A stretch of 64,000 nucleotides of DNA from Candidatus Zapsychrus exili (GTDB lineage: Bacteria > Omnitrophota > Gorgyraeia > Zapsychrales > Zapsychraceae): contig JAVCCJ010000121.1 in NCBI GenBank assembly GCA_030765585.1, positions 7,233-71,232 on the forward strand, read 5' to 3'. The translations under genes were made by a program, and so were the position numbers. This document shows, in pieces, positions 606 through 25,860 of the stretch (the stretch's first letter is position 1; every line of letters starts with the position of its first letter). The notes beneath the pieces are model-generated. The model was not told the origin of the DNA. It ran no database searches and worked only from the letters and a program-made list of their open reading frames with translations.

Positions 606-2321
606 ATGAGAATACTTTCAAGATTAACAATTTCATTTTTAGTAGTAGCTTTGTTTGTTTTAATGGTTGGCTATTATTCAGCAAGCAAAAGTTATGTGAT
701 TTTAAAAGAGAGCATAGAAAAGCAAGCTATTGTTTTAACACAAGAAATTGCTAATAAAATAGACAGGAATCTTTTTAATAAAATAGAGAAGGTGTATATA
801 TTTCTTGATGATCCATTGTTAAAAGATAAGCTTGTTGAGTCTAATAGAGAGTTTGCCGCAAGAGAGAATGTTCAAGAGTATATTTTAGAGAACGATAAAA
901 CTTGGGTAGGGGCAGCACAGGGAACAAGAACATCTTTTATGGAAGATATTATTAATAATCAAATGTCAGGAAGAATAAAATTAAGATTTGATCAACATAA
1001 TGTTAAACAAGAGCATAAAGAGTTTGGGGAAGTATTTATAACGAATAGATACGGTGTAAATATTGCGCAAACATCAAAAACATCTGATTATTATCAGGCA
1101 GATGAAGAGTGGTGGAGGAAAGCTAAAGATGATGGGCTTTATGTTTCTAATGTTGCATATGATGAAAGCTCTCGAATGCTCTCTATTGCTGCTTGTATGA
1201 GAATTGATTCTGATCAAGGTGATTTTTTAGGAGTTATTAAGGGTGTTATAAATTTAGAGGATACTATTGCTATTGTAAAAGAATTAGAGAACAGAAACAT
1301 CGAAGAGGAGGATCTTGTAGATTATAAGCTAGTAACTAGTACGGGGAAGATTATGTATGCGACAGAAGATCTTGAGTTTTTTTCAGTTCTTAGTGAGCAT
1401 TTGATGTCGCACATTATAGCGCAAGGGAGAGTAGGTACTTTTTTAGATCAGGGTGATGTAGATAAAAGAAAACAAGAGATGTTTGTGTTTGCTCAATTAG
1501 AAGGATATAAATATTATGATGGTTTAGGGTGGATTGTAATTATGGAATATGATGCGAAGAAATTGTTTTTTTCTGTAGAAAAATTTAAAAAAGATTTACT
1601 TTTAGTATCATTTTTTGCAGCGCTCTTTGTTATTGCATTGGGTTTAATAGTTGCTAATTCTATAGCAGACCCACTTAACAAACTAACAGATATGGTAAAA
1701 GCAGTAGATAGAGGGGAGATTGGTGTAAAAGTAGATATTAATACAAAAGATGAGATGGCAGATTTAGCAAAGTTATTCAATGAAATGGTTGCTAACTTAT
1801 CAGAAAAAACTGTCTCAAAAGAATATTTAGACAACATAATAAAAAGTATGGTTGACTCTCTTGTTGTAATTAATGTAGAAGGCAAAATTATTGATGCCAA
1901 CAAGTCTTTGGTAAATCTTTTGGGATATGATAAAAAAGATTTAATTGGTTGCGATATAAAGGATTTGTTTTCTTTAGAGGATGCTCAGACGGTAAGCCTT
2001 ACAGGAGGTTGGTTGGGCAGGCTAATAGAAGAAGGTGTTCTTAAAGGATGTGAATTAAACTATAAAACTAAGAATAATAAAGAAATACCTATTGTTTTAA
2101 GTGGTTCTGTTGTGAATAGCAAAGAAGGACAAACTCTTAGCATTGTTTGTGTGGCGCACGATATTACGAATCGTAAAAAGTCTGAGAGCGCCTTGCAAGC
2201 AAAACAAAAAGAGCTACAAGAAAGTAATGCAGATTTGGCTAAAAATGAGAAAGCTTTAAGAAATATGTTTTTTGATCTTCAAAAAGCACATGAGGATTTA
2301 AAGTGGCACACAAGCAATTGA
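606..2321 (+). CDS. Membrane sensor protein: periplasmic Cache-like domain, TM, HAMP, PAS and a C-terminal coiled coil; no recognizable kinase, GGDEF or MCP output domain
   Basis: N-terminal TM (LTISFLVVALFVLMVGYY), a second TM followed by a HAMP-like segment (PLNKLTDMVKAVDRGEIGVKVDINTKDEMADLAKLFNEMVANL), a PAS-like block, then a heptad-rich tail. Confidence 0.55.
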   Translation: MRILSRLTISFLVVALFVLMVGYYSASKSYVILKESIEKQAIVLTQEIANKIDRNLFNKIEKVYIFLDDPLLKDKLVESNREFAARENVQEYILENDKTWVGAAQGTRTSFMEDIINNQMSGRIKLRFDQHNVKQEHKEFGEVFITNRYGVNIAQTSKTSDYYQADEEWWRKAKDDGLYVSNVAYDESSRMLSIAACMRIDSDQGDFLGVIKGVINLEDTIAIVKELENRNIEEEDLVDYKLVTSTGKIMYATEDLEFFSVLSEHLMSHIIAQGRVGTFLDQGDVDKRKQEMFVFAQLEGYKYYDGLGWIVIMEYDAKKLFFSVEKFKKDLLLVSFFAALFVIALGLIVANSIADPLNKLTDMVKAVDRGEIGVKVDINTKDEMADLAKLFNEMVANLSEKTVSKEYLDNIIKSMVDSLVVINVEGKIIDANKSLVNLLGYDKKDLIGCDIKDLFSLEDAQTVSLTGGWLGRLIEEGVLKGCELNYKTKNNKEIPIVLSGSVVNSKEGQTLSIVCVAHDITNRKKSESALQAKQKELQESNADLAKNEKALRNMFFDLQKAHEDLKWHTSN

Positions 2322-2328
2322 GAAAATT

Positions 2329-2610
2329 ATGATGGATCCGCCAGATGTTGCTTTAGTTAATTTAAGTCTTGTTGATTTGCTTGGGGATTTGGTCGTGCAG
2401 CGTTTAGCAAGAATGTCTAAAACGTCAGATGTTAAATATATATTGTATGCGCAAACAGGAGAACATCAGCAGTCTATTATTGATCATTTTGCTGAGAAAA
2501 CAGGTGTAGTCAAATGTATGGAGTATGCGCATCCAGATGAGCTATTGGCAGCGACTGATAATCTTTTTAATAAGAAGTTAATTTCTTGCGTAATAAGCAA
2601 TAATATATAA
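2329..2610 (+). CDS. Small ORF resembling the C-terminal two-thirds of a response-regulator receiver domain (possible remnant of a hybrid kinase)
   Basis: PDVALVNLSLVDLLGDLVVQRLARMSKTSDVKYILYA...GVVKCMEYAHPDELLAATDNLF parallels the REC pattern PDLVLLDLxLPDxxGxEV..PIIxLTA..GAxDYLxKP. It lacks the phospho-acceptor Asp region. Different frame from the upstream sensor. Confidence 0.25.
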   Translation: MMDPPDVALVNLSLVDLLGDLVVQRLARMSKTSDVKYILYAQTGEHQQSIIDHFAEKTGVVKCMEYAHPDELLAATDNLFNKKLISCVISNNI

Positions 2611-2632
2611 AGGGCCACTTTTATAAGTGGTC
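2604..2632 (+). terminator. Rho-independent terminator candidate after the sensor/REC-remnant unit
   Basis: gccactt-ttata-agtggtc hairpin followed by a T6 run. Confidence 0.5.
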
Positions 2633-2710
2633 TTTTTTATTGATGATGCGAAATTTTCGGAGTATAATCAAAAAGCTACTGACAAACAATGCATAACAGT
2701 TTTTAATTGA

Positions 2711-4114
2711 GTGTTACAGGAGAGTTATATGACAAGTAAAAAGAATAGAAAGACCCCTAGAAGAAAAGTGCGGATTCCTGTTTTTGCTTGGGATGCAAGT
2801 GATGAGAAAAAAGAAGGAGAAGGAAAGACTCTTGTTACAAGAGACTTGAGTGCAAATGGTATAGGGTTTTATTCTAATGATATATCTACAGTTGGTACTG
2901 TTTTAAATGTTGATATGTATTTTCCTAAAAAAGAAACACCTGTATCTTGTCAAATTAAAATCACTTTTGTTAAAGCTTTAACACAATCTTCGAAATATAT
3001 TTTAGGTGCTTTTTTTGTTGATTTAAGCGCAGAAGATAAGGAGTTTATTGTAATGTCTTTAAAGGGTATGGATCTTTATTTGCTTTTAGAGAGCATGTTA
3101 AAAGGCGGTGCTTCAGATTTGCATTTAACTGTTGGTAGACCTCCTATGGTGCGACGAGATGGAAAAATTTTGGAAATGGCAGCAGAGCCTTTAGAAGAAG
3201 GACAAATAGAGGCAATGCTATATCCTCTATTGACTGATGAACAAATTAGCCTTTTTGAACAGGTACGTGAAATGGATTTTGCTTTTTCTCCTGATGTAAG
3301 CTCTAGATTTAGAGTTAACATGCATTGGCAAAAAGGATTTGTTGAGGCAGCAATAAGAAATATTCCAACAAAAATAGCTTCCTTTCAAGAGCTTGGGCTT
3401 CCCGAGAAACAGTTAGAAGATTTTTGTAGTGAACAGGCAGGACTTCTCTTGATTGCTGGAACAACAGGATCTGGAAAAACAACGACATTATCTTCTATAG
3501 TGAATTTTATTAACAATAATTACAAAAAAGTTATTATTACTGTGGAAGACCCTATTGAATATACCTTTAAAAGTAATAACAGTATTATAAAACAAAGAGA
3601 GCTGGGGAGCGATACTCGCTCATATGCTGAGGCCTTAAAAAGAGGTCTAAGGCAAGACCCTGATATTCTTTGTGTTGGAGAAATCTTAGACGGAGAGTGT
3701 TTGTCGGCAGCATTGCGAGCAGCCGAAACAGGACATTTGGTTATATCAACTGTTCATGCTCCTAATGCAATTTCTGCCATCGAAAGATGCGTAAACTTTT
3801 TTCCACCAGAACATTCAGCGTCTATTTGTCAGCAAATATCTTCTTGTCTTTCTTCTATATTGTTTCAGGTGCTTATTCCTAGAAAAGACCAAAAAGGGAG
3901 GTTGCTTGCTACAGAATTGTTGTTAAACAATCATGCTGTAAAAAATTTAATAAGAGAAGGCAGATTTAGTATGATGCCTAATGTAATGCAAACTGGTCGT
4001 AATGTTGGAATGTATACTATTGAAAATAGTTTAGAGGAGTTTTATAAAAAAGGTCTTATAGAAGAAAGCGTTATGTTAGATTATATAAATCAAGATTATA
4101 CTCAAAAGTTATAA
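2711..4114 (+). CDS. pilT: PilZ-domain / PilT-family retraction ATPase fusion
   Basis: N-terminal PilZ signatures (RRKVRIP ... DLSANGIGFYS). C-terminal PilT/GspE core: Walker A GTTGSGKTTTLSS, VEDPIEY, ILCVGEILD, TGHLVISTVHA. Confidence 0.8.
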   Translation: MLQESYMTSKKNRKTPRRKVRIPVFAWDASDEKKEGEGKTLVTRDLSANGIGFYSNDISTVGTVLNVDMYFPKKETPVSCQIKITFVKALTQSSKYILGAFFVDLSAEDKEFIVMSLKGMDLYLLLESMLKGGASDLHLTVGRPPMVRRDGKILEMAAEPLEEGQIEAMLYPLLTDEQISLFEQVREMDFAFSPDVSSRFRVNMHWQKGFVEAAIRNIPTKIASFQELGLPEKQLEDFCSEQAGLLLIAGTTGSGKTTTLSSIVNFINNNYKKVIITVEDPIEYTFKSNNSIIKQRELGSDTRSYAEALKRGLRQDPDILCVGEILDGECLSAALRAAETGHLVISTVHAPNAISAIERCVNFFPPEHSASICQQISSCLSSILFQVLIPRKDQKGRLLATELLLNNHAVKNLIREGRFSMMPNVMQTGRNVGMYTIENSLEEFYKKGLIEESVMLDYINQDYTQKL

Positions 4115-7274: not shown

Positions 7275-8210
7275 ATGGATAGAGTTAATAAAAACATAGG
7301 GATTTTGTGCCTTTGTTTGCTTGTGATGTTTGTTGTTGGGTGTGATCAAATAAAAGCAATTTCAGAATATTTTAATAAGACAAACAAAGAAGTAGAAGTG
7401 AGCCAGGATGTTGTAATTCCGCAAGAATTAAAAGCTGCCACACCTGCAATTATCGAAGCAAATGTTTTAGCCGCAGTAGGCTCTTGGAGCATAACAGTTG
7501 AAGAATTTAAAGAAAGATTAGCTGCGCTTAAAGCCGCCATGCCAGAATTTAATATTGATAGCGTTGAAGATAAAAAGGCAGTATTAAATGAGATAATTAA
7601 TCAACAGCTATTAGTTCTAGATGCTGAGCAAAAAGATATTGATGAAGAAAAAGATGTTTTAGCTGCAGTAGATGAATTTAAAAAAACAATTTTAGTCAGA
7701 GAACTAATAATGCGTAAAACACAAGAAATAGCAGTTACGGATGAAGAAATAGCCGCATTTTATGACGAGAGGAAAGATGTTTTAATAACGTCGATAGAAT
7801 TGAGAGTTAGAGAAATTGTTGTTGGATCTCAAGAAGCTGCAAATGAAATTTTAGCTGATATTTTAAAGGGAGCTGATTTTGTTAAAGCAGCAACAGAAAA
7901 ATCAATAGCACAAAGCGCGGCTAATGGTGGAGATCTAGGTTTTATTAAGGAAGCTCCTTTTGCTGAGATGGTAAATCCATTACTTGCACTTGAAAAAGGA
8001 GGAGTTAGTAGTGTTTTTAAGGGGCCGGAAGGATTTTATATTGCTAGATTAGAAGATAAAAAAGGTGGAGAACAGATTCCTTTTGAGGAAATTAAAGCAG
8101 ATATATCGCAAAATTTAACAGCTGTAAAACAACAACAAATGATTTTAGATTATATCAATCAGTTGCGAGCTCAGATAGATATAAATATTAACGAAAGTCT
8201 TTTAGAATAA
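7275..8210 (+). CDS. Lipoprotein peptidyl-prolyl cis-trans isomerase (SurA/PrsA-like N-domain plus parvulin PpiC domain)
   Basis: Lipobox LLVMFVVGC. Parvulin block VREIVVGSQEAANEIL...GGDLGFIKEAPFAEMVNP...GPEGFYIARLEDK. Confidence 0.65.
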   Translation: MDRVNKNIGILCLCLLVMFVVGCDQIKAISEYFNKTNKEVEVSQDVVIPQELKAATPAIIEANVLAAVGSWSITVEEFKERLAALKAAMPEFNIDSVEDKKAVLNEIINQQLLVLDAEQKDIDEEKDVLAAVDEFKKTILVRELIMRKTQEIAVTDEEIAAFYDERKDVLITSIELRVREIVVGSQEAANEILADILKGADFVKAATEKSIAQSAANGGDLGFIKEAPFAEMVNPLLALEKGGVSSVFKGPEGFYIARLEDKKGGEQIPFEEIKADISQNLTAVKQQQMILDYINQLRAQIDININESLLE

Positions 8211-8222
8211 AGAGAGGTAAAA

Positions 8223-9068
8223 ATGAACATAGAAAATAAAAAACAATTTGCAACGATCTTGCTTGCAGTAGGCCTTGGTCTTTTTGCTGCTTTTTTGACC
8301 AGTCAATATGTCAGAAAAAGTGTTGAGAATCAAACAACAATATTAGCTGAAGACTATGCAAAACAAAATGCAATGCAGGCAGAGAAAATGAAGCAAGACA
8401 TTGTTATGTTACGTCAACAGCTTGAGAAAGAAATACAAGGTGTTATGAAAAAACAAGGGACAGCTAAAAAAGTTGATGCGCCAAGAGAAAAAATGGTTCG
8501 CGCAGAAGCTTTTTCTGTTAAGACTCCTATTGGTAAAAGAGCAATTACTATTTTAATTGATCCTCTTTCTGCCGTTGGTGGTTTAGTTAATCCAGGCGAT
8601 TCAGTAGATATTATTGCTCATTTAGAGATTCCAAATGCTTACGATGAAGAAGAAGCTCCAGAGGATGTGACAACAATTTTATTTCAAAATATAGAAGTTT
8701 TAGCTATTAATACTAATTTTGAGCCAATAAATAATGCTCCAAATTATGTAGCACAACAACAAGCTAAGAAATTAAATATCACCTTAGCACTGGAGCCAGA
8801 GGCTGCAGCGCTTCTTACTTTTGCTGAAAAGAATGGCAAGTTACAATTATCTTTAAGGGGACCCAATGAAGATGAAACAGGAGTCTTTAGAGTTGCATCT
8901 TGGGAATCTTTATCTAATTTTGTTTTAGAAAGACAAGGAACAAATTTAATAGTTCCAGGAGCATATAAACAAGAAGTGCCAATTAAGAAAAATATTATTA
9001 TAAATCAAGAAGTAGAAGAAAGCGGACCGTATATTCAAATTTTTAAATCAGGGATAGAATACGAATAG
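8223..9068 (+). CDS. cpaB: Flp pilus assembly protein CpaB/RcpC
   Basis: N-terminal TM, then RAITILIDPLSAVGGLVNPGDSVDIIAHL, the SAF/CpaB signature. Confidence 0.8.
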   Translation: MNIENKKQFATILLAVGLGLFAAFLTSQYVRKSVENQTTILAEDYAKQNAMQAEKMKQDIVMLRQQLEKEIQGVMKKQGTAKKVDAPREKMVRAEAFSVKTPIGKRAITILIDPLSAVGGLVNPGDSVDIIAHLEIPNAYDEEEAPEDVTTILFQNIEVLAINTNFEPINNAPNYVAQQQAKKLNITLALEPEAAALLTFAEKNGKLQLSLRGPNEDETGVFRVASWESLSNFVLERQGTNLIVPGAYKQEVPIKKNIIINQEVEESGPYIQIFKSGIEYE

Positions 9069-9200: not shown

Positions 9201-11087
9201 ATGAAAAAATACAGCATATCAAAAAAGAGCATACTTTCTATTATGTGCATGTCGTTATTATTAATGACGTGTATTGCCACATCTTTTGCTTTAGCTGAAG
9301 ATGCGGCCGAAACAAAAGAAACCATTGATACTCTGGGTATTGCCGAAATTAGCATGATAAAAGGAGAACTTGATACACTTAAAGTTTATTCTTTGACCAG
9401 AGTTTCTTTAACTGATCCGTCTGTAGCTGATATTGTTGATGCAAACGCTAACGAGATTTTACTTATCGCAAAAGAAGAGGGCCAAACAGCGCTTTTTATT
9501 TGGGATAAACATGGAAAAAGAACTCTTGCGGTAAATGTTTTTAATCAACATTTAGAAAGTATTAAAGGTAGACTTGAAGACTTGCTTGATTCTGCTGGTA
9601 TTTCTGGAATAGTGGTCGAAGTCAACAAAAAAGAAGGAAAGGTCATTGTTGTTGGAGATATAAACGAAGAGCAACAAGAACATTTTGATAAAATTATAGC
9701 ACCTTTTGACAGAGATCTTATTTTATTGACCAGAGAAGAAAAAGCCGAAGATCTTATTCAAATAGATTTGCAAATCACAGAGCTAATTACAACTTTATCT
9801 GAAACCATAGGTGTAGATTGGTCTGCAGGTGATGAAAATAGTGTTGTGTTAACATACGCAGAAAATATGCCTACTTTCAATCAAGGGGGAGTTCAGGATA
9901 TTGTAAAAGTAGGAGCTTTTAATAGAACCTCAGCTTTGCTTGCAACAGTAAATGCTCTTGTATCAGAAGGAAAAGCAAGAATACTTTCTCAACCAAAACT
10001 AGTTGTTGTTAGTGGAGAAGAAGCAAGTTTTTTAGTTGGAGGTGAGATACCAGTTAGGACAACAACTGTTAATGATGATGGTACTGCGGAAAATATAGAA
10101 TATAAAGAATATGGCATTGGTATGACAATTCAACCTACTATTAGAAAAGAGAAAATTGATATAATTCTTGATACAGAAATAAGTGATATAGACGGTTCTT
10201 CTCCTGCAGGAGCAGATGATGTTGCATTCTTAACTAGAGCAGCTCAAACACAACTTTATCTTGAAGACGGGCAAACGATTGTTATCGCTGGTTTGATTAA
10301 AAGTAATAAAAATGAAAGTAGAACTTCGGTTCCATTTTTTAGCAAAATTCCTGTTTTAGGGCTTTTGTTTAGAAGTAGATCTAATCCAGCGGCGAATCAA
10401 GATACAGAAATTGTTATATCTCTTACACCTCATATTTTAGTGGAAGAGAAGAGAAAAGAGGTTGTGGTAGATGAGATAAAAGAAATAGTTAGAAGAGAAG
10501 AAATTATTACTATAATTAATAATGTTTTAGAAGAAGAGATTGTGGAAATTGATGAAGTGGTTGAAGAGACAGAAGGAATGGAAAATGTAGCAGAGAATGC
10601 AGAAGCGGCAAATAAAGGTACTATTTATACAGAGGAAGCTACAGAATTAGAAGAAGTTGAGGCAATTATTGAGGAAGAAAAGGAAGCAGAAGAAGTTGAT
10701 TTGTTTTTTTTAGCAGACGATGATTCTGTTCCAATAGATGAAAAGCCTTATCAAGCGCCAGAAAATGATTATATTTTAGAAGGTATTCCTGAAGAGATGC
10801 AGAACTATGTAAAGGGTGTTCAGCAAGCAATTTTTGAGTCCATATCCTATCCTATCGAAGCAGAAAATTATGGCTGGGAAGGTATGGTTAAGTTAGGTAT
10901 GCTTATTTTAGACGACGGAACACTTGCTTTTGCTCTTGTTAAAGAATCTTCAGGATACGAAGTTTTTGATAACAACGCTTTAGAAACAGCTAAGAATTTA
11001 GCACCATATCCGGCATTTCCATCTGATACTGATCTTATGGAGTTAAGCGTAACAATACCTATCGTATATTCCTTAGATAGTAAATAG
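9201..11087 (+). CDS. cpaC: Tad/T2SS-family secretin (CpaC/RcpA-like) with an acidic linker and a C-terminal TonB_C-like domain
   Basis: Signal peptide. Secretin core ILSQPKLVVVSGEEASFLVGGEIPV...IVIAGLIKSNKNESRTSVPFFSKIPVLGLLFRS. Glu-rich linker. C-terminus ISYPIEAENYGWEGMVKLGMLILDDGTLAFALVKESSGYEVFDNNALETAKNLAPYPAFP...IPIVYSL matches the TonB C-terminal pattern. Confidence 0.8.
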   Translation: MKKYSISKKSILSIMCMSLLLMTCIATSFALAEDAAETKETIDTLGIAEISMIKGELDTLKVYSLTRVSLTDPSVADIVDANANEILLIAKEEGQTALFIWDKHGKRTLAVNVFNQHLESIKGRLEDLLDSAGISGIVVEVNKKEGKVIVVGDINEEQQEHFDKIIAPFDRDLILLTREEKAEDLIQIDLQITELITTLSETIGVDWSAGDENSVVLTYAENMPTFNQGGVQDIVKVGAFNRTSALLATVNALVSEGKARILSQPKLVVVSGEEASFLVGGEIPVRTTTVNDDGTAENIEYKEYGIGMTIQPTIRKEKIDIILDTEISDIDGSSPAGADDVAFLTRAAQTQLYLEDGQTIVIAGLIKSNKNESRTSVPFFSKIPVLGLLFRSRSNPAANQDTEIVISLTPHILVEEKRKEVVVDEIKEIVRREEIITIINNVLEEEIVEIDEVVEETEGMENVAENAEAANKGTIYTEEATELEEVEAIIEEEKEAEEVDLFFLADDDSVPIDEKPYQAPENDYILEGIPEEMQNYVKGVQQAIFESISYPIEAENYGWEGMVKLGMLILDDGTLAFALVKESSGYEVFDNNALETAKNLAPYPAFPSDTDLMELSVTIPIVYSLDSK

Positions 11088-11114: not shown

Positions 11115-13274
11115 ATGAGCTGTAAAACAATTACTATCTTTAGTAACAAAGGTGGCGTAGGAAAAACTTTTGTTACTATTAATTTAGCTACCGCACTTGC
11201 ATCCGCAGGTAAAAAGACACTTGTCATCGATTTAGATTTTCAAGCAGGCCAAGATATGGCAAGAATGCTTAATTTATCTCCTAGAGGGTCTGTTGCTGAC
11301 TCTTTGTCTAACATAGAAAGCGCAGAGAATCCTGATGTAATAAAAGAATACGTAGCACAACATAAGTCAGGCTTGCACTTTATTCCTGCCGTTAAGAATA
11401 CCAAACAAATAGGTCATGTTACCCCAGACAATATTAAGCTTTTTATGAAGAAAGTAGCTAAGGTATATGATTATATTTTAGTTGATGCCGGTAGATCATT
11501 TAATGAAACTCTTGTAACAGTATTTGATTATTCTAATCTTATATTGCTTGTTGCTACTCCAGATGTTTTGGCAGTTTATCAGGTAAAGTGGTGTTTAGAT
11601 ATTTTGCAAAATCTACAGTTTCCTGCAAATATGATAAAGCTTATATTAAATAGATCTGAGAGCAAAGGCTCTGTGGCGTGGCAAGAAATAAGGACTGCCT
11701 TGCCTTGTGAAATCTTTAGTCATATTCCTTCTGACGGCAAAATAGTTGGTACTGCGATGAATAGAGGTGTTCCATGTGTTTTAGATAGCCCTAAATCTAA
11801 GGTTGCGGAAGCGTTTGTTAAGATGACACATATGCTAAGTCGAGAAGATATTTTTGTTGATGTAGCTGATACTGATAAGATTCGATCAACAGAAGGATTT
11901 GTGAAACCTGGTCAATTTTGGGAGAAGTTTGGGATATTTAAACAAAGCGGGCAAACAGAAAATGTTCTCGGCACTGTAGAAGATGAATTTGCTAATTTAA
12001 AACAAAAAATACATGAAAAACTTATTGAAAGACTTAACTTAGAAGGCATTACTCTTGAGAATTTGAATGATCAGCAGACAATAGAAAAAGTTAAAAAGTC
12101 TTCAGAAGATATTGTAAGAGATTTGTTGGCAGAAGAAATGGGTGGTAATATTTCTTCTCATGAAGAGCGAGCCAGAATAATTAAAGATATTGTAAACGAG
12201 GCTCTTGGATTAGGTCCCTTGGAAGATCTTCTCGCTGATCCGGACGTAACTGACATTATGGTTAATAGTAAAAATGAAATTTATGCTGAAAAGAACGGAA
12301 AAATAATATTAACTAATAAAACTTTTGTGTCAGATTCAAAGATGAGGGCGATTATTGATAGAATTATTGCTCCTTTAGGAAGACGTATTGACGAATCAAC
12401 ACCTATGGTTGATGCGCGACTTCCGGATGGTTCAAGAATTAATGCTATTATCCCACCTTTAGCATTAAACGGACCAATGATTACTATTAGAAAATTTGGA
12501 CAAGAAAGACTTACTATCGCAGATTTGCTTACTATGCATAAAAGTATTACACCTGAGATATCGTCTTTTTTGCAGGCTGCTGTTGTTGCGCGTAAAAATA
12601 TTATTGTCTCCGGAGGAACAGGTGCTGGTAAAACAACACTTTTAAATGTACTTTCTGAGTTTATTCCCGACGGAGAGCGTATTATTACAATAGAAGATGC
12701 TGCTGAGCTTAGACTCAAGAAAACTCATTGTGGAAGGCTTGAATCTAGACCAGCAAACGTTGAAGGAAAAGGAAAAATAACGATAAGAGATTTATTTGTT
12801 AATTGTCTTCGTATGCGTCCAGATAGAATTGTTATTGGTGAGTGTCGTGGTGGAGAGGTATTAGATATGCTTCAGGCAATGAATACAGGACACGATGGAT
12901 CCCTTACAACAATTCATGCTAATTCTACGAGAGATGTTTTGACGCGTCTTCACTCTTTGATTTTATTAAGTGGTATTGAACTTCCAGTTCGTGCAATAAA
13001 CGAGATGGTAGCCTCTGCAATAGATTTGATTGTCCACATAAGCCGTTATTCTGATGGTACAAGAAAAGTAACAGGAGTGTCTGAGGTAATTGGGATAGAT
13101 GATGAATTCCAAATAATTTTAAATGATGTTTTTATCTTTAATCAGCAAGGTATTGATGAGAATGGCAATATTATTGGAAATTATGAAGCCACTGGATATG
13201 TTCCTGAATGTTACGAAGATTTTTCAACGCGCGGTATTAAGATTGATAAAGCAATATTTAATAAACCAAAATAA
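11115..13274 (+). CDS. cpaF: Fusion of a CpaE/TadZ-like ParA/MinD ATPase with a CpaF/TadA secretion ATPase
   Basis: N-terminal deviant Walker A SNKGGVGKTFVTINLA...VIDLDFQ. C-terminal TadA core GGTGAGKTTLLNVL, ITIEDAAEL, RPDRIVIGECRGGE, NTGHDGSLTTIHAN. Confidence 0.8.
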   Translation: MSCKTITIFSNKGGVGKTFVTINLATALASAGKKTLVIDLDFQAGQDMARMLNLSPRGSVADSLSNIESAENPDVIKEYVAQHKSGLHFIPAVKNTKQIGHVTPDNIKLFMKKVAKVYDYILVDAGRSFNETLVTVFDYSNLILLVATPDVLAVYQVKWCLDILQNLQFPANMIKLILNRSESKGSVAWQEIRTALPCEIFSHIPSDGKIVGTAMNRGVPCVLDSPKSKVAEAFVKMTHMLSREDIFVDVADTDKIRSTEGFVKPGQFWEKFGIFKQSGQTENVLGTVEDEFANLKQKIHEKLIERLNLEGITLENLNDQQTIEKVKKSSEDIVRDLLAEEMGGNISSHEERARIIKDIVNEALGLGPLEDLLADPDVTDIMVNSKNEIYAEKNGKIILTNKTFVSDSKMRAIIDRIIAPLGRRIDESTPMVDARLPDGSRINAIIPPLALNGPMITIRKFGQERLTIADLLTMHKSITPEISSFLQAAVVARKNIIVSGGTGAGKTTLLNVLSEFIPDGERIITIEDAAELRLKKTHCGRLESRPANVEGKGKITIRDLFVNCLRMRPDRIVIGECRGGEVLDMLQAMNTGHDGSLTTIHANSTRDVLTRLHSLILLSGIELPVRAINEMVASAIDLIVHISRYSDGTRKVTGVSEVIGIDDEFQIILNDVFIFNQQGIDENGNIIGNYEATGYVPECYEDFSTRGIKIDKAIFNKPK

Positions 13275-13305: not shown

Positions 13306-13647
13306 ATGCAAATTATAAATATAACAAATAATACCACAATTGCAACTGATGTTGTCGTTGCCGATACTTTTAAAACTCGAGCAATAGGCCTTTTAAATAG
13401 AGAGGGCATTAATGATGGCGAGGCTCTTGTGATCACAAGATGCCAGTCAATACATATGTTTTTTATGAAATTTGCTATTGATGTAATTTTTGCAGATAAA
13501 AATAATCGTGTTGTTGGGCTAGTTAAAACGATAAAACCTTTTTGTTTGAGCCCTCTATTCTTTAAAGCAAATTATGCTGTTGAGCTTTCATCTGGCACAA
13601 TACTTGCCACAAATACCTCTATTGGAGATCAAATAGAGCTAGCGTAA
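13306..13647 (+). CDS. DUF192 (COG1430) family protein
   Basis: ...GLLNREGINDGEALVITRCQSIHMFFMKFAIDVIFADKNNRVVG... fits the DUF192 pattern (GLM.R..L....GMLF.F.....HM..M.FPLDVIF). Confidence 0.5.
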   Translation: MQIINITNNTTIATDVVVADTFKTRAIGLLNREGINDGEALVITRCQSIHMFFMKFAIDVIFADKNNRVVGLVKTIKPFCLSPLFFKANYAVELSSGTILATNTSIGDQIELA

Positions 13648-13922: not shown

Positions 13923-15905
13923 ATGGGAGTAATTTACAAGTTTAAACAAGAAGTAATTGATTTTATATTAAGTCAAAAGAAAGAAAACTCTGTGCTTAGT
14001 TGTCGTAAGCTTGCGGATATTGTGTCAAAGAAGTTTAGCTTGGTTGTATCAAAGTCTTCTATAAATACTATTCTTAAAAAAGCTCAATTAAGTAGTTCTG
14101 TTGGAAGAAGAGCTACAAAAAGTGAAAAAGGATTTAAAATTCCTGAAGCAAAGAAAATGCAAATTCAGGAGAATTTAAGGCAGGTTGGTCTTGATTTGTC
14201 TGGAAAAGATCAAAAAGATGAAAAAATGGTACAGTCTTCAGCTTTAGAATCTGATCAAGTTAAAATATTAGATAGCGAGCGTTTGGCAGCTAGTATTGAA
14301 TCTTTAATACAGGAGCCATCTGAAGAATCGCAAGAGTCTGTTATTTCTCATCAGCCTGAACCCGAGTTGGATAATGATTTAGAAGCAAAAGAAGAATTTA
14401 TTAGTCTTCAAAAAGATATTTTTGAGCAAGATATTGAGAAAGTAGAGTCACATCAGGAGAAGGAAGTAATAGAAGAAATAGATGAAGATGTTGATATTGG
14501 AGATGTTGAAAGAAAATATAATGATTTTCTTGATTATGTGGGTCATCTGCGTTCGCAAAAGAAATCATTGTCTTTCTTGAGTCGTTTTGAAGGAATGGGT
14601 GCGATTTTCTTGAAAATATTGCAATGGGAATTTGATAGTGAGGCATTTTTCAGAGATTTTCTTAAAAATAAGATAAATGGAGTGCTTTTAGACGGATTTG
14701 AAAAAGTATGCGATGCTTTTCTTTGTTTTAAACTTTTAGGGATAGATGGGCTAGAGCATATTGATAAGTATAAACATTATGCTTTGCCAGTTTTAGGTGA
14801 TTATGGAGAAGAATTCTCAAGGTTGATAGAAAATAAAGAAGATCTTGAAAATGTTTTGGTCAATTTTTCTGATGATAAATTTTTGCAAAATATAAAAGGA
14901 GAATATGTAAGAGAAAAAGAACAGCTGTTTTTAAAAGTTCGAGGATTTAAAATAATTTTTGAAGATGCAGAATCTTTGTTTATTGATGCTGGGCTTAAAT
15001 CGTTTTATAAAAATATACCACCAGAGAGACTGGCATGTTCTTTTAAAAAATCTTTTAGTTGTCTTTCAAGAAGTTTTGTAAGTAATAATTATCCAGCGGT
15101 GTTTTATCATATTGATGACGAGACACAAGAATTAGTTAGCCTAGTGAACATTGTAGATATTTTAGAGAATTTAAGCTTAAAAGTAATAAAAGAAATAGAG
15201 ATGTTGGGTTTAGATGGCGAGAATTTATCAACGTTTTCAATAATACCTAATATTAAGCGCAAGATAATTTTTGGGCTAAACGCTTCTTGTCAGGCAGTAA
15301 AGATACAGTTGCAGCAGCTGGATTCTTCCTTAACAAAACCTTTTTATCATGAACAAGCAGACAAAATTTATTATTACTGTGAAGATACTATTATTTCTTC
15401 TGAAGATAAAAACGGCAAGCAAACAGATTTAAAATTGATAGCACTTTGTTCTGATAAGACTAAAGATTTTGAACTTGTTATTGTTACAAATATGGTTTCA
15501 TCTGTGGCTTTTGATATAATTTCTGCTTATTTTGACAGAATTCCATATTTGCCAAGTTCTTTTTCTGTTTGTGATGCAATAGATTGTGATAATGCTTTTG
15601 ACAATGTAGACGTTTTAAGTGTTTTGGATGTCATAAATGACCTTAAAAGTGTGTTTGATAATTGTTTCCAGCGTTATCTCTTTGGAGCTGGGATATCTTC
15701 TGATAATGTAAGTGACTTTAAGGCAAAGCTTTATGAACTTCCAGGCTATTTGCAAAAGGATAATGAGCTTCTAAAGGTTATTTTAGATGCATCTGAAGAC
15801 TTTCCTTATTTTAAGGAATTGCAGAATATTGTTAAGGTTGTAAATAGTCAAAATATTTTAGATAAAGAAAATCGTAAGATTTTCATTGAAATTGCTCCTT
15901 CTTGA
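13923..15905 (+). CDS. Hypothetical 660-aa protein between the tad machinery and the pilin array; N-terminal HTH-like segment, acidic linker, large uncharacterized C-terminal domain
   Basis: Long ORF with codon usage like its neighbours. N-terminus SCRKLADIVSKKFSLVVSKSSINTILKK is HTH-like. No recognizable catalytic motifs. Confidence 0.5.
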   Translation: MGVIYKFKQEVIDFILSQKKENSVLSCRKLADIVSKKFSLVVSKSSINTILKKAQLSSSVGRRATKSEKGFKIPEAKKMQIQENLRQVGLDLSGKDQKDEKMVQSSALESDQVKILDSERLAASIESLIQEPSEESQESVISHQPEPELDNDLEAKEEFISLQKDIFEQDIEKVESHQEKEVIEEIDEDVDIGDVERKYNDFLDYVGHLRSQKKSLSFLSRFEGMGAIFLKILQWEFDSEAFFRDFLKNKINGVLLDGFEKVCDAFLCFKLLGIDGLEHIDKYKHYALPVLGDYGEEFSRLIENKEDLENVLVNFSDDKFLQNIKGEYVREKEQLFLKVRGFKIIFEDAESLFIDAGLKSFYKNIPPERLACSFKKSFSCLSRSFVSNNYPAVFYHIDDETQELVSLVNIVDILENLSLKVIKEIEMLGLDGENLSTFSIIPNIKRKIIFGLNASCQAVKIQLQQLDSSLTKPFYHEQADKIYYYCEDTIISSEDKNGKQTDLKLIALCSDKTKDFELVIVTNMVSSVAFDIISAYFDRIPYLPSSFSVCDAIDCDNAFDNVDVLSVLDVINDLKSVFDNCFQRYLFGAGISSDNVSDFKAKLYELPGYLQKDNELLKVILDASEDFPYFKELQNIVKVVNSQNILDKENRKIFIEIAPS

Positions 15906-16294: not shown

Positions 16295-16459
16295 ATGATG
16301 CATTTAATAAAAACAAAAGGAAACAAGGGTCAACACTTAATAGAATATGCCATGGTCGCGGCTATTGTAGCAGCAGCAGTGGTCGCTATGAGTACCTATG
16401 TGTTTAGGTCAGTTCAGTCTACGCAACAAATGATTCATAAAGAGTCTAGAAACGAATAA
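16295..16459 (+). CDS. flp: Flp-family prepilin (54 aa); below the ORF-track size cut-off
   Basis: MMHLIKTKGNKGQHLIEYAMVAAIVAAAVVAMSTYVFRSV.. has the G/QHLIEY class-III prepilin motif and a hydrophobic helix. Read directly from the DNA. Confidence 0.6.
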   Translation: MMHLIKTKGNKGQHLIEYAMVAAIVAAAVVAMSTYVFRSVQSTQQMIHKESRNE

Positions 16460-16517
16460 CAAGAAGTTAGAACAAAAGTAAAATAGAATTGATAACCTTT
16501 TAAGGAGGTCATAAGCG

Positions 16518-16739
16518 ATGTTAAAAAGAAATAAATTAAAAGTACAAACAAAGAAAAAAGGACAAAGCACGGTTGAATATATTATTTTAGTTGCTGGTGT
16601 TTTAGCAGCTTTAATTGTATTTCTACGACCAGGTGGTCCATTTAATAATGCATTAGACTCAACTTTAAATTCACAATTAAGCGAAATGAACACTATGTCT
16701 AGTAGATTAGCGGATTCTCATAATCCAGACGTAAGATGA
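16518..16739 (+). CDS. flp: Flp-family prepilin
   Basis: Strong SD aaggagg. KKGQSTVEYIILVAGVLAALIVF contains G/QSTVEY. Confidence 0.75.
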   Translation: MLKRNKLKVQTKKKGQSTVEYIILVAGVLAALIVFLRPGGPFNNALDSTLNSQLSEMNTMSSRLADSHNPDVR

Positions 16740-16781
16740 CGAACGCTATGTTTAGTAGATTAGCGGATTCTCATAATCCAG
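16693..16781 (+). repeat. 36-nt tandem duplication (period 53 nt) spanning the stop codon of the second flp gene
   Basis: ctatgtctagtagattagcggattctcataatccag (16693-16728) and ctatgtttagtagattagcggattctcataatccag (16746-16781). Confidence 0.7.
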
Positions 16782-16873
16782 GCTAATCTAGGCGTATAGT
16801 TTTTTTTGTAGTAGAATTAATTGTAGAATTTAATCAGTTGAAAGTTAAATTTTATTTTAGGAGGATTAAACAA

Positions 16874-17245
16874 ATGTTAAGAAAATTAATTAAAAATAAG
16901 AAAGCTCAGAATACTGCAGAATACGCTATTTTGATATCTCTTGTTGTAGCTGGTATTGTTGCTATGCAGACGTATGCGCAACGTGCTCTTCAAGCAAGAG
17001 TTTATTCAGCATCTGAGTTGTTATCAACTTCTGCAAATAGTACAGAGGCCGCAGGTTGGTCTTTAGGCGAAGAAAAACAATATGAACCTTATTATCTTAA
17101 TCAAAGTTATGATGTTACATCAGAAGATCAAGAACGCCGTAGTCTAGGAAATCAAGATGTTTCCATGGATACAGCTTCTAATAGAACTAGACAAACAGGT
17201 GGCTATCAAAATACGATGTGGAATGCAGACGACCACATGAACTAA
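16874..17245 (+). CDS. Flp/TadE-like prepilin with an extended C-terminal domain (start taken at the internal Met with SD ggagg, not 16838)
   Basis: MLRKLIKNKKAQNTAEYAILISLVVAGIVAM contains A/QNTAEY. Confidence 0.65.
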   Translation: MLRKLIKNKKAQNTAEYAILISLVVAGIVAMQTYAQRALQARVYSASELLSTSANSTEAAGWSLGEEKQYEPYYLNQSYDVTSEDQERRSLGNQDVSMDTASNRTRQTGGYQNTMWNADDHMN

Positions 17246-17296
17246 GAGTTTAGTTTAAGTACTAAGGTTTAAACTTTATTTAGGAGGATATAAAAG

Positions 17297-17632
17297 ATGT
17301 TAAAATATTTAAATAAAAGACGTAAAAAAGGACAAAGCACACTAGAATATGCTGTTTTAATTATTATTATTATTGGTGCTCTGCTGTCTATTCAGGTTTA
17401 CATTAAAAGAGGTATTCAGGGTCGTCTTAAAAGTGCAACAGATGACATCGGCGATCAATTCTCGCCAGGTAATACAAATGTTAAAGCTTATACTAGAACT
17501 GAGTCCAGGACAATAGAGACTAATGATAAAGGAGCAGCAAGTTCTGTTCTGAGGGAAGATGAGTTAACAGTTTCTAATATGGTTTCCAATGTTATTGATG
17601 TTGAACAAGAATATTGGGGTGGACCAGAGTAG
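17297..17632 (+). CDS. flp: Flp-family prepilin
   Basis: SD ggagg. RRKKGQSTLEYAVLIIIIIGALLSI. Confidence 0.7.
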   Translation: MLKYLNKRRKKGQSTLEYAVLIIIIIGALLSIQVYIKRGIQGRLKSATDDIGDQFSPGNTNVKAYTRTESRTIETNDKGAASSVLREDELTVSNMVSNVIDVEQEYWGGPE

Positions 17633-17854
17633 AGATTAGATGTATTTGTATTTAAATATAAAAGGGGGCATGTTTTTACAACGTGTCCTCTTTTTTGTGT
17701 TTGAATCTATTAGGCGCGGTCTCATCTGGGGCGTTGGGTAGCTACTGTCGCCAAGTATATTTCTTGTATGTGTTATTGTCTTTATAAAAAACATAGTGTA
17801 TACTTAATATACGAATATTAGTATTAATTTTTATTAGTAAGGTAAAATAATATT

Positions 17855-18289
17855 ATGTTAAGACTGTTTAAAGAAAAAAAAGCACAGACCAGCATAGGCG
17901 AATATGCTCTAACTTTCTTTTTGGTCATTGGAGCTATAGCTACAATGACTATTTTTGTTAGAAGAGCCATTCAAGCAAGAATTTATTCAGCACATAAAAT
18001 AATAGCTGATACTGTTGAAACTCGTGCCGCAGGATACAAAATGGCAGGAAATGTTTTTGTTGAATATGAGCCTTATTATACGAACACAGTTATGCAGAGA
18101 AGCATGAGCGCGTCTGCCAATGCTGAGCTTATGTCAAGTGGCGTAGGAACGTCGGGAATTTTTACGAAAGAGTCGTCAGAAGAATCGACTGTTGATAGTA
18201 CAAGCGGTGTAGCAGCGCCTAGCGGAGAGTCAGGTGCGGCTAGAGTGATAGGAGACAATGCAAGCGTACCGCCGCCCAATGGTGATTAA
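17855..18289 (+). CDS. Flp/TadE-like prepilin with a Ser/Gly-rich C-terminal extension
   Basis: EKKAQTSIGEYALTFFLVIGAIATMTIF. Confidence 0.6.
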   Translation: MLRLFKEKKAQTSIGEYALTFFLVIGAIATMTIFVRRAIQARIYSAHKIIADTVETRAAGYKMAGNVFVEYEPYYTNTVMQRSMSASANAELMSSGVGTSGIFTKESSEESTVDSTSGVAAPSGESGAARVIGDNASVPPPNGD

Positions 18290-18305
18290 GAATAGGTAAA
18301 GAATT

Positions 18306-18647
18306 ATGAAAATAAAGAAAATATTATTTGAAAACAAAGCGCAAACAATTTTAGAATATGCTGCTATTTTAAGCATTGTGTCTATAGCGCTTATTACAAT
18401 GAATCCTATGATAAAAAGAGCGCTGCAGGGAGCTATTAGAACTGTTGCTGACCAAATTGGAACTCAAAATGGAGCAGAGCAGGATTTTGATTCAGGTTTT
18501 CTTAATGAATCTCAGACTTCTTCTAGAGCTACAAGTTTTAAGCAAGTAGAGCAACAATTAGGCAATACTATTTATACCTACGATGATAGTACTGATATGG
18601 AGTCGACTGCTTATTCAGACTTAGGGGTAACAGATATAGATAATTAA
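18306..18647 (+). CDS. Flp/TadE-like prepilin
   Basis: ENKAQTILEYAAILSIVSIALITM. Confidence 0.6.
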   Translation: MKIKKILFENKAQTILEYAAILSIVSIALITMNPMIKRALQGAIRTVADQIGTQNGAEQDFDSGFLNESQTSSRATSFKQVEQQLGNTIYTYDDSTDMESTAYSDLGVTDIDN

Positions 18648-18684
18648 GGTAAAAGTTAAAACATAAAGGATAAAGGTACATAAA

Positions 18685-19014
18685 ATGTTAAGAATAAAGA
18701 AAAAAGGCCAGTCGTCATTAGAATATGCAACTCTTATTATTGTTGTCATTGGCGTGTTGCTTACAATGGGGGTTTATTTTAAAAGAGGTATTCAGGGAAG
18801 ATGGAAAGCATCAGCTGATGGTCTAGGCGAACAATATGATCCTAGATATACTATTTCAAATACAGTACATACAATAGAATCAAATACAGAAACATCGCTT
18901 TTTATTGTTCCTGTAGACCCCTTAAATCCTAATGATACGTTTGCAACGCATAGAGTTGATACTACTAGCGCAACTGAAACTAGAGTAGGCAATACAATAG
19001 TTGCTGGATATTAG
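18685..19014 (+). CDS. flp: Flp-family prepilin
   Basis: KKKGQSSLEYATLIIVVIGVLLTM. Confidence 0.7.
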   Translation: MLRIKKKGQSSLEYATLIIVVIGVLLTMGVYFKRGIQGRWKASADGLGEQYDPRYTISNTVHTIESNTETSLFIVPVDPLNPNDTFATHRVDTTSATETRVGNTIVAGY

Positions 19015-19102
19015 AGAAGCAGGGAATAGGTATTAGAAAAATAGGTTCTAGGGGCTAGGTGTTAGGCGATAGGTGTTAGGTTTAAACTAAAAGAAATTAA
19101 TT

Positions 19103-20773: not shown

Positions 20774-20783
20774 AGGTAAAAAG

Positions 20784-21056
20784 ATGAAAGATAAAAGAAA
20801 AAATAAAAGACAAAAGGCAAAATACAAGAATAGTAATTCAGCTCAGATTATTATTGAGTTTATTTTTTGTATGACTATTTTGCTTTTAATGATTTATGGA
20901 ACGCTGATGATTTTTAAATGGACGGGTTCGGATCTTGTTCACAGGCGTATCGCGCATGATGAATTATTAATAGGAGGCGGTGGCGTCCCTCTTAATCAAA
21001 TAGACCCATATTTTTATACACCTATTAAGATGAATGCTGTTTGGTCAGGGAATTAA
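20784..21056 (+). CDS. TadE-like pseudopilin (start at the internal Met 20784 with SD aaagg, not 20748)
   Basis: NSNSAQIIIEFIFCMTILLLMIYGTLMIF. Confidence 0.55.
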   Translation: MKDKRKNKRQKAKYKNSNSAQIIIEFIFCMTILLLMIYGTLMIFKWTGSDLVHRRIAHDELLIGGGGVPLNQIDPYFYTPIKMNAVWSGN

Positions 21057-21072
21057 AGAGTAAGGATAAAAA

Positions 21073-24000: not shown

Positions 24001-24306
24001 TACAAGCGTTCTGGTTTAGACAACACAGAAAACATTCCAGCCCTTGAGGCTGCTTGTCTAGGAGCTAGTAATGATCTTCTTCCGCCTATTTTAGCTGAAA
24101 GTTCAATATATAAACCTGTTTATCAACAGGCCTTTATTCTAAATAAAGCTGATGAATATCCTGCTTGTTGGAACAAAGCGATGGATCATATTAAAATGGG
24201 AGTTATGACAGAAACATGTGCGCAGTATTTTTGGTTGGGACCCGACTATGGTGGTTCAATGAATTTAAAGTTTGTTCCATGCCCTGGGTCGAACGCAGTT
24301 CAGTAA
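21073..24306 (+). CDS. Giant (1,077 aa) TadG-like minor pilin / tip-adhesin candidate: prepilin-like N-terminus, second TM, then a Cys/Trp/Asn/Asp-rich extracellular domain
   Basis: ...MRSSKGQIALLLVLVIAIALIFYAV (G/QIALL). Remainder rich in C, W, N and D with many CxxC pairs. No enzymatic motif seen. Confidence 0.6.
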   Translation: MFRRLNYILRNNYFTRSLKNIGQDIGQDKRMRSSKGQIALLLVLVIAIALIFYAVSLNLGKVSQTKTMVTIASNVATGYLASQMASWGQAKADQLEGKRKHCALTGVVAAIVGFVILIIAIVLMPESAGLSAGLIEVSIGLAVAAIVIELVWVNPQISSLWDRIMANSLSQESQFSESSIQKALQNVITDQVQVPDLHDDDMDQVWWADAPNGSSPDMMSRYAYYYKTRLNRVVPRNWTVVSEFLEALGDFIYYRPPDIDPNDDWGLMDSENDCNPLSNSECQPCCVSADARDADLDCSSLIATYGSVEGWCSAHSPYSGGSTEYPYIYNPYPFFEKIDNSRDSLRELIGRDDENTKYYADYDAFLGTQLEHGIPDPDAWNNNNDFHIEDTVGFYNNDNRKDVFSFFHQIAENITDWNWGGGVDLNDLAPREQYGAEEDLVYLEQCNWCDRNFVTPAGDPLGNCRHRTSGPGGFELGMSQLALLNSPDHNASYCVEGTEAAAEAGNPLLAVDKFTVADGIQASKDSCPEAGPGGSTGFWKPGSDQFCSNSFPYPANCAKHSLPCDVYGVYTNCPTCEASPDKTLWRDDMIDDFLYNFQHFFKWASFSMNIGVDIIRNDFVGWYDSSAEKWIDETSNPEDNDNILLGVKNNFTEMARRLKNWKNSTEYIGNVWCVPSNGTIPLPTVVPPYVNLLTPEEEVIDNAGNRGTLGNIIACLNWNISGGSGIVNKMNNCTSACQVYTTNPGDPEDPSDTVTAYAANQACYNLPTRSLSGINLQGQYHSIGSAVPGDTLDTACADSDFLSNLSESAHQGVNQTVKFQKRREFLSSLEIGLDNAIVTFNYAAEGFADFLESDEVAALKEFRADFFNVDDFTENSPYQLIYGWKDDESKVKDPLWHLVRVDARLPKKCDQENSSLCGNWQWPDIDEYTKGIFATTRCYELKNHTGGVKIRVTRYDESPKTGNLIFPNGVPIWDFKYKRSGLDNTENIPALEAACLGASNDLLPPILAESSIYKPVYQQAFILNKADEYPACWNKAMDHIKMGVMTETCAQYFWLGPDYGGSMNLKFVPCPGSNAVQ

Positions 24307-25848: not shown

Positions 25849-25860
25849 TAAGAGGAAAAT

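Follow-up and report, generated by a model that had tools for sequence, protein, structure and literature searches.

Tad pili are load-bearing, retracting filaments. The means by which they are anchored in the cell envelope are just beginning to emerge and vary by species. In Pseudomonas, assembly requires that the pilotin TadD bind the last four residues of the secretin RcpA (PMC10499894). In Caulobacter, the OmpA-like lipoprotein CpaD has been modeled as a belt around the barrel of the secretin CpaC and proposed as its wall anchor, and a small protein, CpaI, links the secretin with CpaB through the C-terminal hairpin of the latter; dependence on a pilotin or lipoprotein is itself variable among Tad systems (PMC13170226). 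Separately, TonB_C is known as a portable periplasmic module that is found on outer-membrane barrels or in two copies (bioRxiv 10.1101/2025.01.14.632903; PMC10350073), and in Bacteroides, it occurs in tandem and with other domains (PMC10350073). Here, we describe a Tad-type secretin that carries a TonB_C domain, encoded in a 64,000-nucleotide stretch of the genome of Candidatus Zapsychrus exili, of the phylum Omnitrophota (GenBank assembly GCA_030765585.1, contig JAVCCJ010000121.1, positions 7,233 to 71,232 of the forward strand). We refer to this whole stretch as the window and give positions within it. Omnitrophota are ultrasmall and probably predatory or parasitic, and their Tad machine is thought to mediate contact with the host.

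The product of the gene (Table 1) is 100% identical to the GenBank “TonB family protein” of Candidatus Zapsychrus exili (P0001 in our set). It is a Tad-type secretin that gained a TonB_C module and is the outer-membrane pore (RcpA/CpaC type) of a Tad/Flp pilus machine. Pfam places T2SS-T3SS_pil_N at residues 64 to 113 (E = 5.7e-10; 39.2 bits versus a cutoff of 23) and Secretin (PF00263) at residues 252 to 413 (E = 1.8e-40; 138.7 bits versus a cutoff of 27.5; profile positions 1 to 168 of 169). A full-length AlphaFold model of the monomer, for which 120 homologues were used, has high confidence in the N-domains, pore core, and C-terminal domain. In this model, the signal peptide appears as a helix (residues 8 to 33), the N-terminal domain is all-beta, and the second domain follows the pattern helix-strand-strand-helix-strand, both domains with a predicted local distance difference test score (pLDDT) of >90; Pfam matches of the second domain to YscD BON-like families are weak and below their cutoffs. 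Compared with solved structures by fold search, the full-length model matches secretins at E values down to 2e-23, and RcpA (8odn) shows the highest identity among them (23%). Secretins and TonB domains are matched separately, and no solved secretin spans both parts.

The C-terminal part is a TonB domain by profile, sequence, and fold. A first-pass annotation of the same DNA had recognized a secretin core, a Glu-rich linker, and a TonB_C-like module in the last ~110 residues; all three are borne out, and the search with the TonB_C hidden Markov model that it had proposed as a check gives a clear match (Pfam PF03544, residues 548 to 625, E = 2e-13, 51.0 bits versus a cutoff of 24.6, profile positions 3 to 79 of 79). 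NCBIfam tonB_Cterm (TIGR01352) agrees (E = 1.6e-13; 50.8 bits versus a cutoff of 27.1), and a profile built from the C-terminal domains of 48 relatives retrieves solved TonB domains, with Helicobacter pylori TonB (6sly) at the top (E = 7.7e-15). Residues 520 to 628, modeled in isolation with AlphaFold, reach a pLDDT of 93 and a predicted template modeling (TM) score of 0.83, with elements in the order helix-helix-strand-strand-helix-strand. When this model was compared with the PDB by Foldseek, each of the top 25 matches was the C-terminal domain of a TonB, HasB, FusB, or TolA protein, and the closest fold is again 6sly (TM score of 0.77, 28% identity). The residues 449 to 518 that precede the domain are predicted to be disordered (pLDDT of <50), and a helix at 418 to 447 is weakly predicted. 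The first-pass annotation had also remarked that secretins usually end with the S-domain. This holds for secretins of type II and type III secretion systems but not for Tad RcpA, whose C-terminus is a short unstructured tail that binds TadD through its last four residues (PMC10499894).

A TolA-like rather than TonB-like identity of the domain was considered and rejected because the TolA matches (E of ~1.5e-4) are much weaker than those to TonB (7.7e-15).

The fusion is the standard form of this secretin throughout Omnitrophota and is not peculiar to one gene. T2SS-T3SS_pil_N, Secretin, and TonB_C occur together in all 120 of the nearest cluster representatives. In a library of 1.84 billion representatives (50% clustering), 391 score E ≤ 1e-30, and TonB_C is present in 133 of the best 142, down to ~30% identity; the nine that are without it are short sequences, most of them truncated by contig ends. 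A scan of loci with one genome per GTDB species covered the best 80 of 121 loci, which are taken up by Omnitrophota and are silent on other phyla. The fusion is present at all 80, with one TonB_C domain at 71, a tandem pair at 8, and 1 gene split by an apparent frameshift. Besides Omnitrophota, the labels of these loci include many “uncultured Planctomycetales” metagenome-assembled genomes, one “Phycisphaerae,” two “bacterium,” Ca. Elulimicrobium, and Ca. Aceula, which we take as mislabeled or uninformative. Names are scarce among the distant members of the sequence clusters; one member, on a 3.5-kb contig, is labeled Hydrothermarchaeota, and we read this as a binning error. In a second deep clade, whose seed is 32% identical, the fusion was found in 119 of 120 matches, and all named ones are Omnitrophota. 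Pooled, 363 of 373 relatives that have the N-domain and the pore core carry TonB_C, 19 of them in two copies. When the last 129 residues were used as the sole query, the matches were limited to nine gene fragments on short contigs, which are uninformative on relatives that are not fused.

Conservation is distributed unevenly along the chain. Across 81 species, mean pairwise identity is 45% in the N-domain, 35% in the second domain, and 54% in the pore core, falls to 13% in the spacer, and returns to 49% in the TonB_C domain. The spacer measures 14 to 358 residues in the 363 relatives (median of 39, typically 30 to 60), and its composition drifts among them, being rich in E, A, S, P, or K. A conserved domain on a freely drifting leash is the mark of a functional module kept by selection, and it rules out both a faulty assembly and a relic in decay. 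Loss of a stop codon or a misassembly that joined a secretin to a tonB neighbor, or a remnant without function, might be suspected given that the protein comes from a metagenome-assembled genome and that the gene at one locus is split into two overlapping open reading frames (ORFs). Yet 79 of the 80 independent species assemblies show the architecture without a break, as do the 363 of 373 proteins, which come from many studies, and the domain model scores a pLDDT of 93 in addition to the 49% identity that the domain keeps beyond its 13% spacer. We give such an origin next to no credence. At the split locus (L072, positions 871 to 3169), the secretin and TonB_C lie in ORFs of 641 and 179 residues, for which a frameshift or sequencing error is the simplest account. 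Tandem TonB_C domains occur in ~5 to 10% of the family, each with its own spacer before it, and a few proteins exceed 1,000 residues (examples of tandems are loci L010, L011, L014, L015, L017, L019, L038, and L057 and proteins P0131, P0134, P0136, P0145, P0252, P0257, and P0259).

What the domain does may be approached through its structural relatives. The C-terminal domains of TonB and TolA bind their targets via beta-strand addition, and in all solved complexes of the TonB_C fold, the strand of a partner peptide is added next to the C-terminal edge strand (PDB matches; PMC12204202). The equivalent edge strand of the secretin, TIPIVYSL, is conserved, with T618, P620, and Y623 invariant or nearly so. 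By analogy, we infer beta-strand addition of a partner peptide (a Ton box in TonB terms) as a candidate binding mode. The first-pass annotation had suggested that the module could attach the pore to peptidoglycan or to a partner protein, and attachment to one or the other appears to be the most reasonable functional reading. We favor the partner protein. We put the probability at about 40% that TonB_C serves as a periplasmic tether built into the pore: by capturing a peptide from a partner in the periplasm or anchored in the inner membrane, it would secure the pore to the rest of the machine.

Such a tether would work as follows. The secretin would enter the periplasm via a cleavable signal peptide, without a membrane anchor, and would assemble into an outer-membrane ring, as secretins do with 12 to 15 subunits; the number would be 13 to 14 if it is like RcpA. 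The C-terminus of each subunit would emerge at the periplasmic side of the barrel, and a ring of TonB_C domains would hang below the barrel on leashes of 30 to 60 residues. Each domain would grip a short exposed peptide of the partner as a beta-strand beside TIPIVYSL, which would lock the pore to the envelope-spanning machine and let it bear the load of a retracting adhesive pilus. The built-in module would, in this way, probably take over the work of the separate, trans-acting helpers TadD, CpaD, and CpaI.

Within the operon, our best guess at the ligand is the extreme C-terminal tail of CpaB. Its last ~15 codons specify a motif, P-[FY]-I-Q-I-F-[RK]-G-G, that is conserved in 76 loci behind a variable charged linker; the tail peptide in the window is …KPFIQIFRGGREL. 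A conserved tail that follows a poorly conserved linker has the layout of a docking peptide, and its receptor could be either the N-domain of the secretin or TonB_C. Several observations weigh against a tether of this kind. The N-terminal beta-sandwich of the secretin is an equally good alternative receptor for the CpaB tail, and docking there is suggested by the analogy with Caulobacter, in which the CpaB hairpin is predicted to pack on a CpaI domain homologous to the secretin N-domain (PMC13170226). A mutual-information scan of the CpaB tail against the secretin, which at 76 related sequences has low power, gave no clear excess for the C-terminal domain, with 12 of the 60 top pairs versus ~10 expected from its size, and the tail is not duplicated in species with two TonB_C domains. 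Furthermore, the invariant residues of the domain are mostly those shared by TonB_C domains at large (the core motif with YP, A, G, DG, SSG, D, and P) and thus carry little information on a specific interface. Lastly, TadD-, CpaD-, or ExbBD-like genes may lie outside the window and the 10-kb flanks examined.

The partner could also be the cell wall. In type IVa pili, the AMIN domains of PilQ bind septal peptidoglycan and fasten the secretin to the envelope. By binding peptidoglycan directly, TonB_C might likewise pin the secretin ring to the sacculus, as the AMIN domains or CpaD would do, although we regard this as somewhat unlikely. The overall plan, a pore with a small periplasmic module on a flexible leash, sometimes in tandem (8 of the 80 loci and 19 of the 363 proteins), resembles known secretin wall anchors, and a leash that varies from 14 to 358 residues suits a ligand that forms a continuous layer better than a partner at a fixed position. 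A tryptophan, W559, in a G-W-E-G motif is 90% conserved in the fusion family at a position where H. pylori TonB has Ile. Murein binding in vitro by the C-terminus of E. coli TonB has reportedly been observed by Kaserer and colleagues (J Bacteriol, 2008). CpaD is a proposed wall anchor of a Tad secretin (PMC13170226), and no OmpA-like gene is present in the conserved operon here. Against direct wall binding, every solved TonB_C complex is one of peptide strand addition, and peptidoglycan binding is not established for the fold.

The secretin gene lies in a co-directional operon whose gene order is conserved over the 80 loci (Table 1). The gene of the peptidyl-prolyl isomerase (PPIase) lipoprotein holds the same position in 73 of them and recurs at a distant locus (L081, 6950 to 7870); it directly precedes the secretin there and stands one gene further up in the window. 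The order in this distant clade is PPIase, secretin-TonB_C, RcpC, and CpaE/F. CpaB/RcpC is found in 77 of the 80 loci. The CpaE-CpaF protein, found in 76 of 80 and also at L081 (11658 to 13847), provides the operon with a second conserved fusion; CpaE/TadZ and CpaF/TadA are separate proteins in model Tad systems. The pilin run is conserved in 56 loci, and the larger proteins with pilin-like N-termini are conserved in 47 or fewer. Motifs of the G/xxxxEY type are visible at the N-termini of the pilin-like proteins; the Flp_Fap match is below its cutoff, and Class_IIIsignal, an archaeal-type family, is above its cutoff for one pilin. Seven small paralogous Flp-like pilin genes stand in a row at 16295 to 19014 (+ strand), with N-termini of the KGQST(L/V)EY type. 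The window showed no gene for a prepilin peptidase, and no further conserved gene families were found within 10 kb on either side at the 80 loci.

Table 1. The secretin–TonB_C gene, its domains, and the other genes of the operon (positions in the window)
Feature	Residues	Position	Strand	Basis and remarks
Predicted lipoprotein, parvulin-type PPIase with SurA-N-like region		7275–8210	+	Rotamase_2, E = 4e-15; lipobox (…FVVGC) read from sequence
CpaB/RcpC		8223–9068	+	Pfam RcpC, E = 8e-25; N-terminal membrane helix, RcpC domain, variable linker, conserved tail …PYIQIFKSGIEYE
Tad-type secretin–TonB_C gene	628 plus stop codon	9201–11087	+	Single uninterrupted ORF, ATG start
Signal peptide	1–32	9201–9296	+	Basic start MKKYSISKK, hydrophobic core, putative cleavage between SFALA and ED; read from sequence
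N-terminal beta-sandwich domain, Tad-secretin type	49–114	9345–9542	+	Pfam T2SS-T3SS_pil_N
Second periplasmic ring-type alpha/beta domain	118–179	9552–9737	+	Putatively N1/N3-like
Secretin pore core	185–413	9753–10439	+	Pfam Secretin; model matches solved secretins
Spacer	414–530	10440–10790	+	28% Glu; weak helix 418–447, then disorder
TonB_C domain	531–625	10791–11075	+	Helix, short helix, two strands, helix, edge strand TIPIVYSL
CpaE/TadZ-like ParA ATPase fused to CpaF/TadA motor ATPase	719 in all	11115–13274	+	Pfam AAA_31/ParA/CbiA at residues 3–240, T2SSE at 364–644
DUF192 gene		13306–13647	+	In 63 of 80 loci
Gene without Pfam match	660 in all	13923–15905	+	In 61 of 80 loci
Flp-like pilin/pseudopilin array, then larger proteins with pilin-like N-termini	556, 102, and 1077 (larger proteins)	16295–24306	+	Weak Flp_Fap and Class_IIIsignal matches
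TadB-like and TadC-like platform genes		24991–26754	+	Pfam T2SSF, E = 2e-18 and 5e-15

The helpers of model Tad systems were sought in the same neighborhood. Among the window ORFs scanned with Pfam, there were no OmpA/CpaD products and no tetratricopeptide repeat (TPR)/TadD pilotin products, and a family-specific profile found neither a second pil_N protein (CpaI-like) nor an additional TonB_C protein in the 80 neighborhoods. A module that targets, inserts, or oligomerizes the secretin, replacing TadD and lying idle in the finished machine, would fit an operon without a TPR lipoprotein, as it would the C-terminus of RcpA, which is the pilotin docking site and essential for assembly (PMC10499894). 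Its contact could be an outer-membrane lipoprotein, the Bam machinery, or further copies of itself arranged as a collar around the barrel. C-terminal fragments of TonB crystallize as strand-swapped dimers, and two chains are present in PDB 1u07. The conserved PPIase lipoprotein encoded upstream, which may serve the pore or the pilins as a chaperone of their own or in place of a pilotin, could act together with the TonB_C domain. However, a contact of the pilotin type normally needs a short tail only, and long variable leashes and tandem copies are unexpected for a collar of fixed geometry. We consider a role in assembly decidedly unlikely and the routes just named equally so.

Despite its database name, the protein is not a TonB. 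TonB and TolA consist of an N-terminal transmembrane helix with an SHLS motif that docks ExbBD or TolQR, a periplasm-spanning region, and the C-terminal domain (PMC12204202). A true TonB was considered for this gene and rejected, given that the product has a cleavable signal peptide and lacks both a membrane anchor and the SHLS motif and that its gene has no ExbB/ExbD neighbors. The absence of SHLS follows from the absence of any His in the signal-peptide region, the first His not occurring before residue 103; there is also no canonical lipobox at the N-terminus. After the signal peptide come ~380 residues of secretin, and only the last part of the chain is TonB-like, together with, loosely, the spacer. 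This is of low complexity, as in TonB, but Glu-rich, with 33 Glu and 4 Pro among the 117 residues 414 to 530. NCBIfam tolA_full matches the protein weakly (17.5 bits versus a cutoff of 59.45). The Pfam scan of window ORFs revealed no exbB, exbD, tolQ, or tolR gene, and none forms a conserved family within 10 kb of the 80 loci. Public names differ, with “TonB family protein” at NCBI and “pilus assembly protein CpaC” at JGI. The former may inflate counts of TonB systems and falsely suggest TonB-dependent uptake in surveys of Omnitrophota.

The domain might instead couple force or a signal. An inner-membrane motor of the ExbBD, TolQR, or PocAB type, or else a genuine TonB or TolA, could engage a TonB_C domain tethered to the outer membrane. 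The pore would in that case be gated, or the machine positioned, by proton-motive force, as a fused counterpart of the PocAB-TonB3 requirement of Pseudomonas type IVa pili. TonB3 and PocAB are needed for assembly and localization of type IVa pili, for which a contact between TonB3 and PilQ has been suggested but is unproven (PMC5285504), and a TonB3 homologue affects transformation dependent on type IV pili in Acinetobacter (PMC8811193). A passage of PMC9389320 cites in vivo cross-linking of TonB to the periplasmic domain of ExbD. The fusion of genes for two partners is moreover a classic “Rosetta stone” sign of a physical link. Still, no motor genes are present in the window or the conserved neighborhood, a conventional transducer would be anchored at the opposite membrane, and the N-terminal domain is the Tad beta-sandwich and not the STN/N0 domain that underlies the PilQ-TonB3 idea. 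We judge engagement by a motor to be very improbable, and gating or positioning by proton-motive force no less so. The corresponding “Rosetta stone” reading, in which TonB domains and secretins would be direct partners and a reversed TonB, gripping or gripped by a motor-linked protein of the inner membrane, would mechanically couple pore gating or pilus dynamics to the proton-motive force, stands at similarly long odds; if true, it would also explain the PocAB-TonB3 requirement of Pseudomonas type IV pili.

Other features of the window and of the related loci are given here as observations in their own right. A giant ORF of 9,925 codons (30255 to 60032, + strand) lies ~19 kb downstream from the secretin gene. 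A Peptidase_C39 domain is situated near its N-terminus, and an M23 peptidase and an SLT transglycosylase, both cell wall degrading, are situated near its C-terminus; its translation shows an OmpA-like motif and many predicted membrane segments, and it belongs to the Omnitrophota giant-gene class reported beside pilus or secretion loci. The ~2.2 kb upstream of it (28000 to 30250) contain no convincing ORF and no Rfam match at gathering thresholds, and direct repeats precede the giant gene (73 nucleotides with 85% identity at 28245 and 28655; 66 nucleotides with 76% identity at 28828 and 29474). Between the Tad platform genes and the giant gene, positions 27141 to 28010 (− strand) encode a DUF1016_N domain fused to a staphylococcal-nuclease domain; this is the sole sizeable minus-strand gene of the window, which has a strong positive GC skew and nearly all of its genes on the plus strand. 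Five kilobases upstream of the secretin, a second T2SSE-family ATPase gene with an N-terminal PilZ domain, which binds cyclic di-GMP (2711 to 4114, + strand), adjoins a HAMP-PAS sensor gene (606 to 2321) and is found at 7 of the 80 loci. Ahead of the operon, a CN-hydrolase gene and then a malate dehydrogenase gene occur at 53 and 60 of the 80 loci, respectively, and gyrB, gyrA, and sometimes dnaN lie 5 to 10 kb upstream of the secretin (L070, 69 to 2510; L080, 2975 to 5428; L049, 12 to 692; and ~30 other loci); these names were read from the sequences and not from a family scan. The genes gyrB, gyrA, and dnaN are often located near the replication origin.

We found no description or interpretation of a secretin–TonB_C fusion in the open-access literature; precomputed Pfam assignments and automatic names already register the fusion. 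The principal comparative paper on Omnitrophota treats the phylogeny of RcpA and makes no mention of TonB (PMC10066038). A 2026 preprint reports “TonB-domain content” in the genes that flank giant genes, beside Tad cassettes (bioRxiv 10.64898/2026.06.07.730766), and these flanks may be this same secretin. The Tad secretin, the TonB_C fold, and anchoring modules borne on linkers are each known, and their combination is a lineage-defining form of the Tad secretin. Omnitrophota appear to weld a TonB-type binding module onto the pore itself, phylum-wide, which provides a concrete handle for finding the attachment partner of the pore. The TonB_C domain is defined and easily expressed, and it should be both unexpected and useful to specialists on secretins; the fusion is also an independent hint on how TonB homologues come to be connected with type IV pili. 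Interest is limited in that this is a variant produced by domain shuffling and that the organisms are difficult subjects for experiments.

Like PilQ of type IVa pili, the fusion secretin carries one or two small periplasmic modules on flexible linkers (PMC5285504), but the anchoring AMIN modules of PilQ are N-terminal and of an unrelated fold, whereas TonB_C is C-terminal. PocAB-TonB3 of P. aeruginosa and TonB2 of A. baumannii likewise tie a TonB-family domain functionally to a type IV filament machine. These, however, are separate proteins anchored in the inner membrane that have ExbBD-like motors and act on type IVa pili, whereas the Omnitrophota domain is covalently part of a Tad secretin with no motor gene in its neighborhood. 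The precedents for a portable TonB_C differ in carrier protein, operon context, and phylum, and none involves a secretin. With TonB proper (H. pylori 6sly/5lw8; E. coli TonB, HasB, and FusB), the C-terminal domain agrees in profile and fold, down to the Ton-box edge strand and an extra N-terminal helix as in H. pylori TonB and HasB. It hangs on an outer-membrane pore rather than an inner-membrane motor, and the spacer that bears it is Glu-rich, in contrast to the Pro-rich spacer of TonB. The nearest counterparts are RcpA and CpaC, with which the protein shares the pil_N beta-sandwich N-domain and the secretin core, in an operon that holds CpaB/RcpC, CpaE and CpaF, TadB/TadC-like proteins, and Flp-like pilins. 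Caulobacter CpaC is encircled by the separate lipoprotein CpaD, and the genes of TadD, CpaD, and CpaI are not in the Omnitrophota operon. RcpA stops ~20 residues past the core with a coil, the last four residues of which are bound by TadD (PMC10499894), whereas the Omnitrophota chain continues for ~215 residues past the core, into the spacer and TonB_C.

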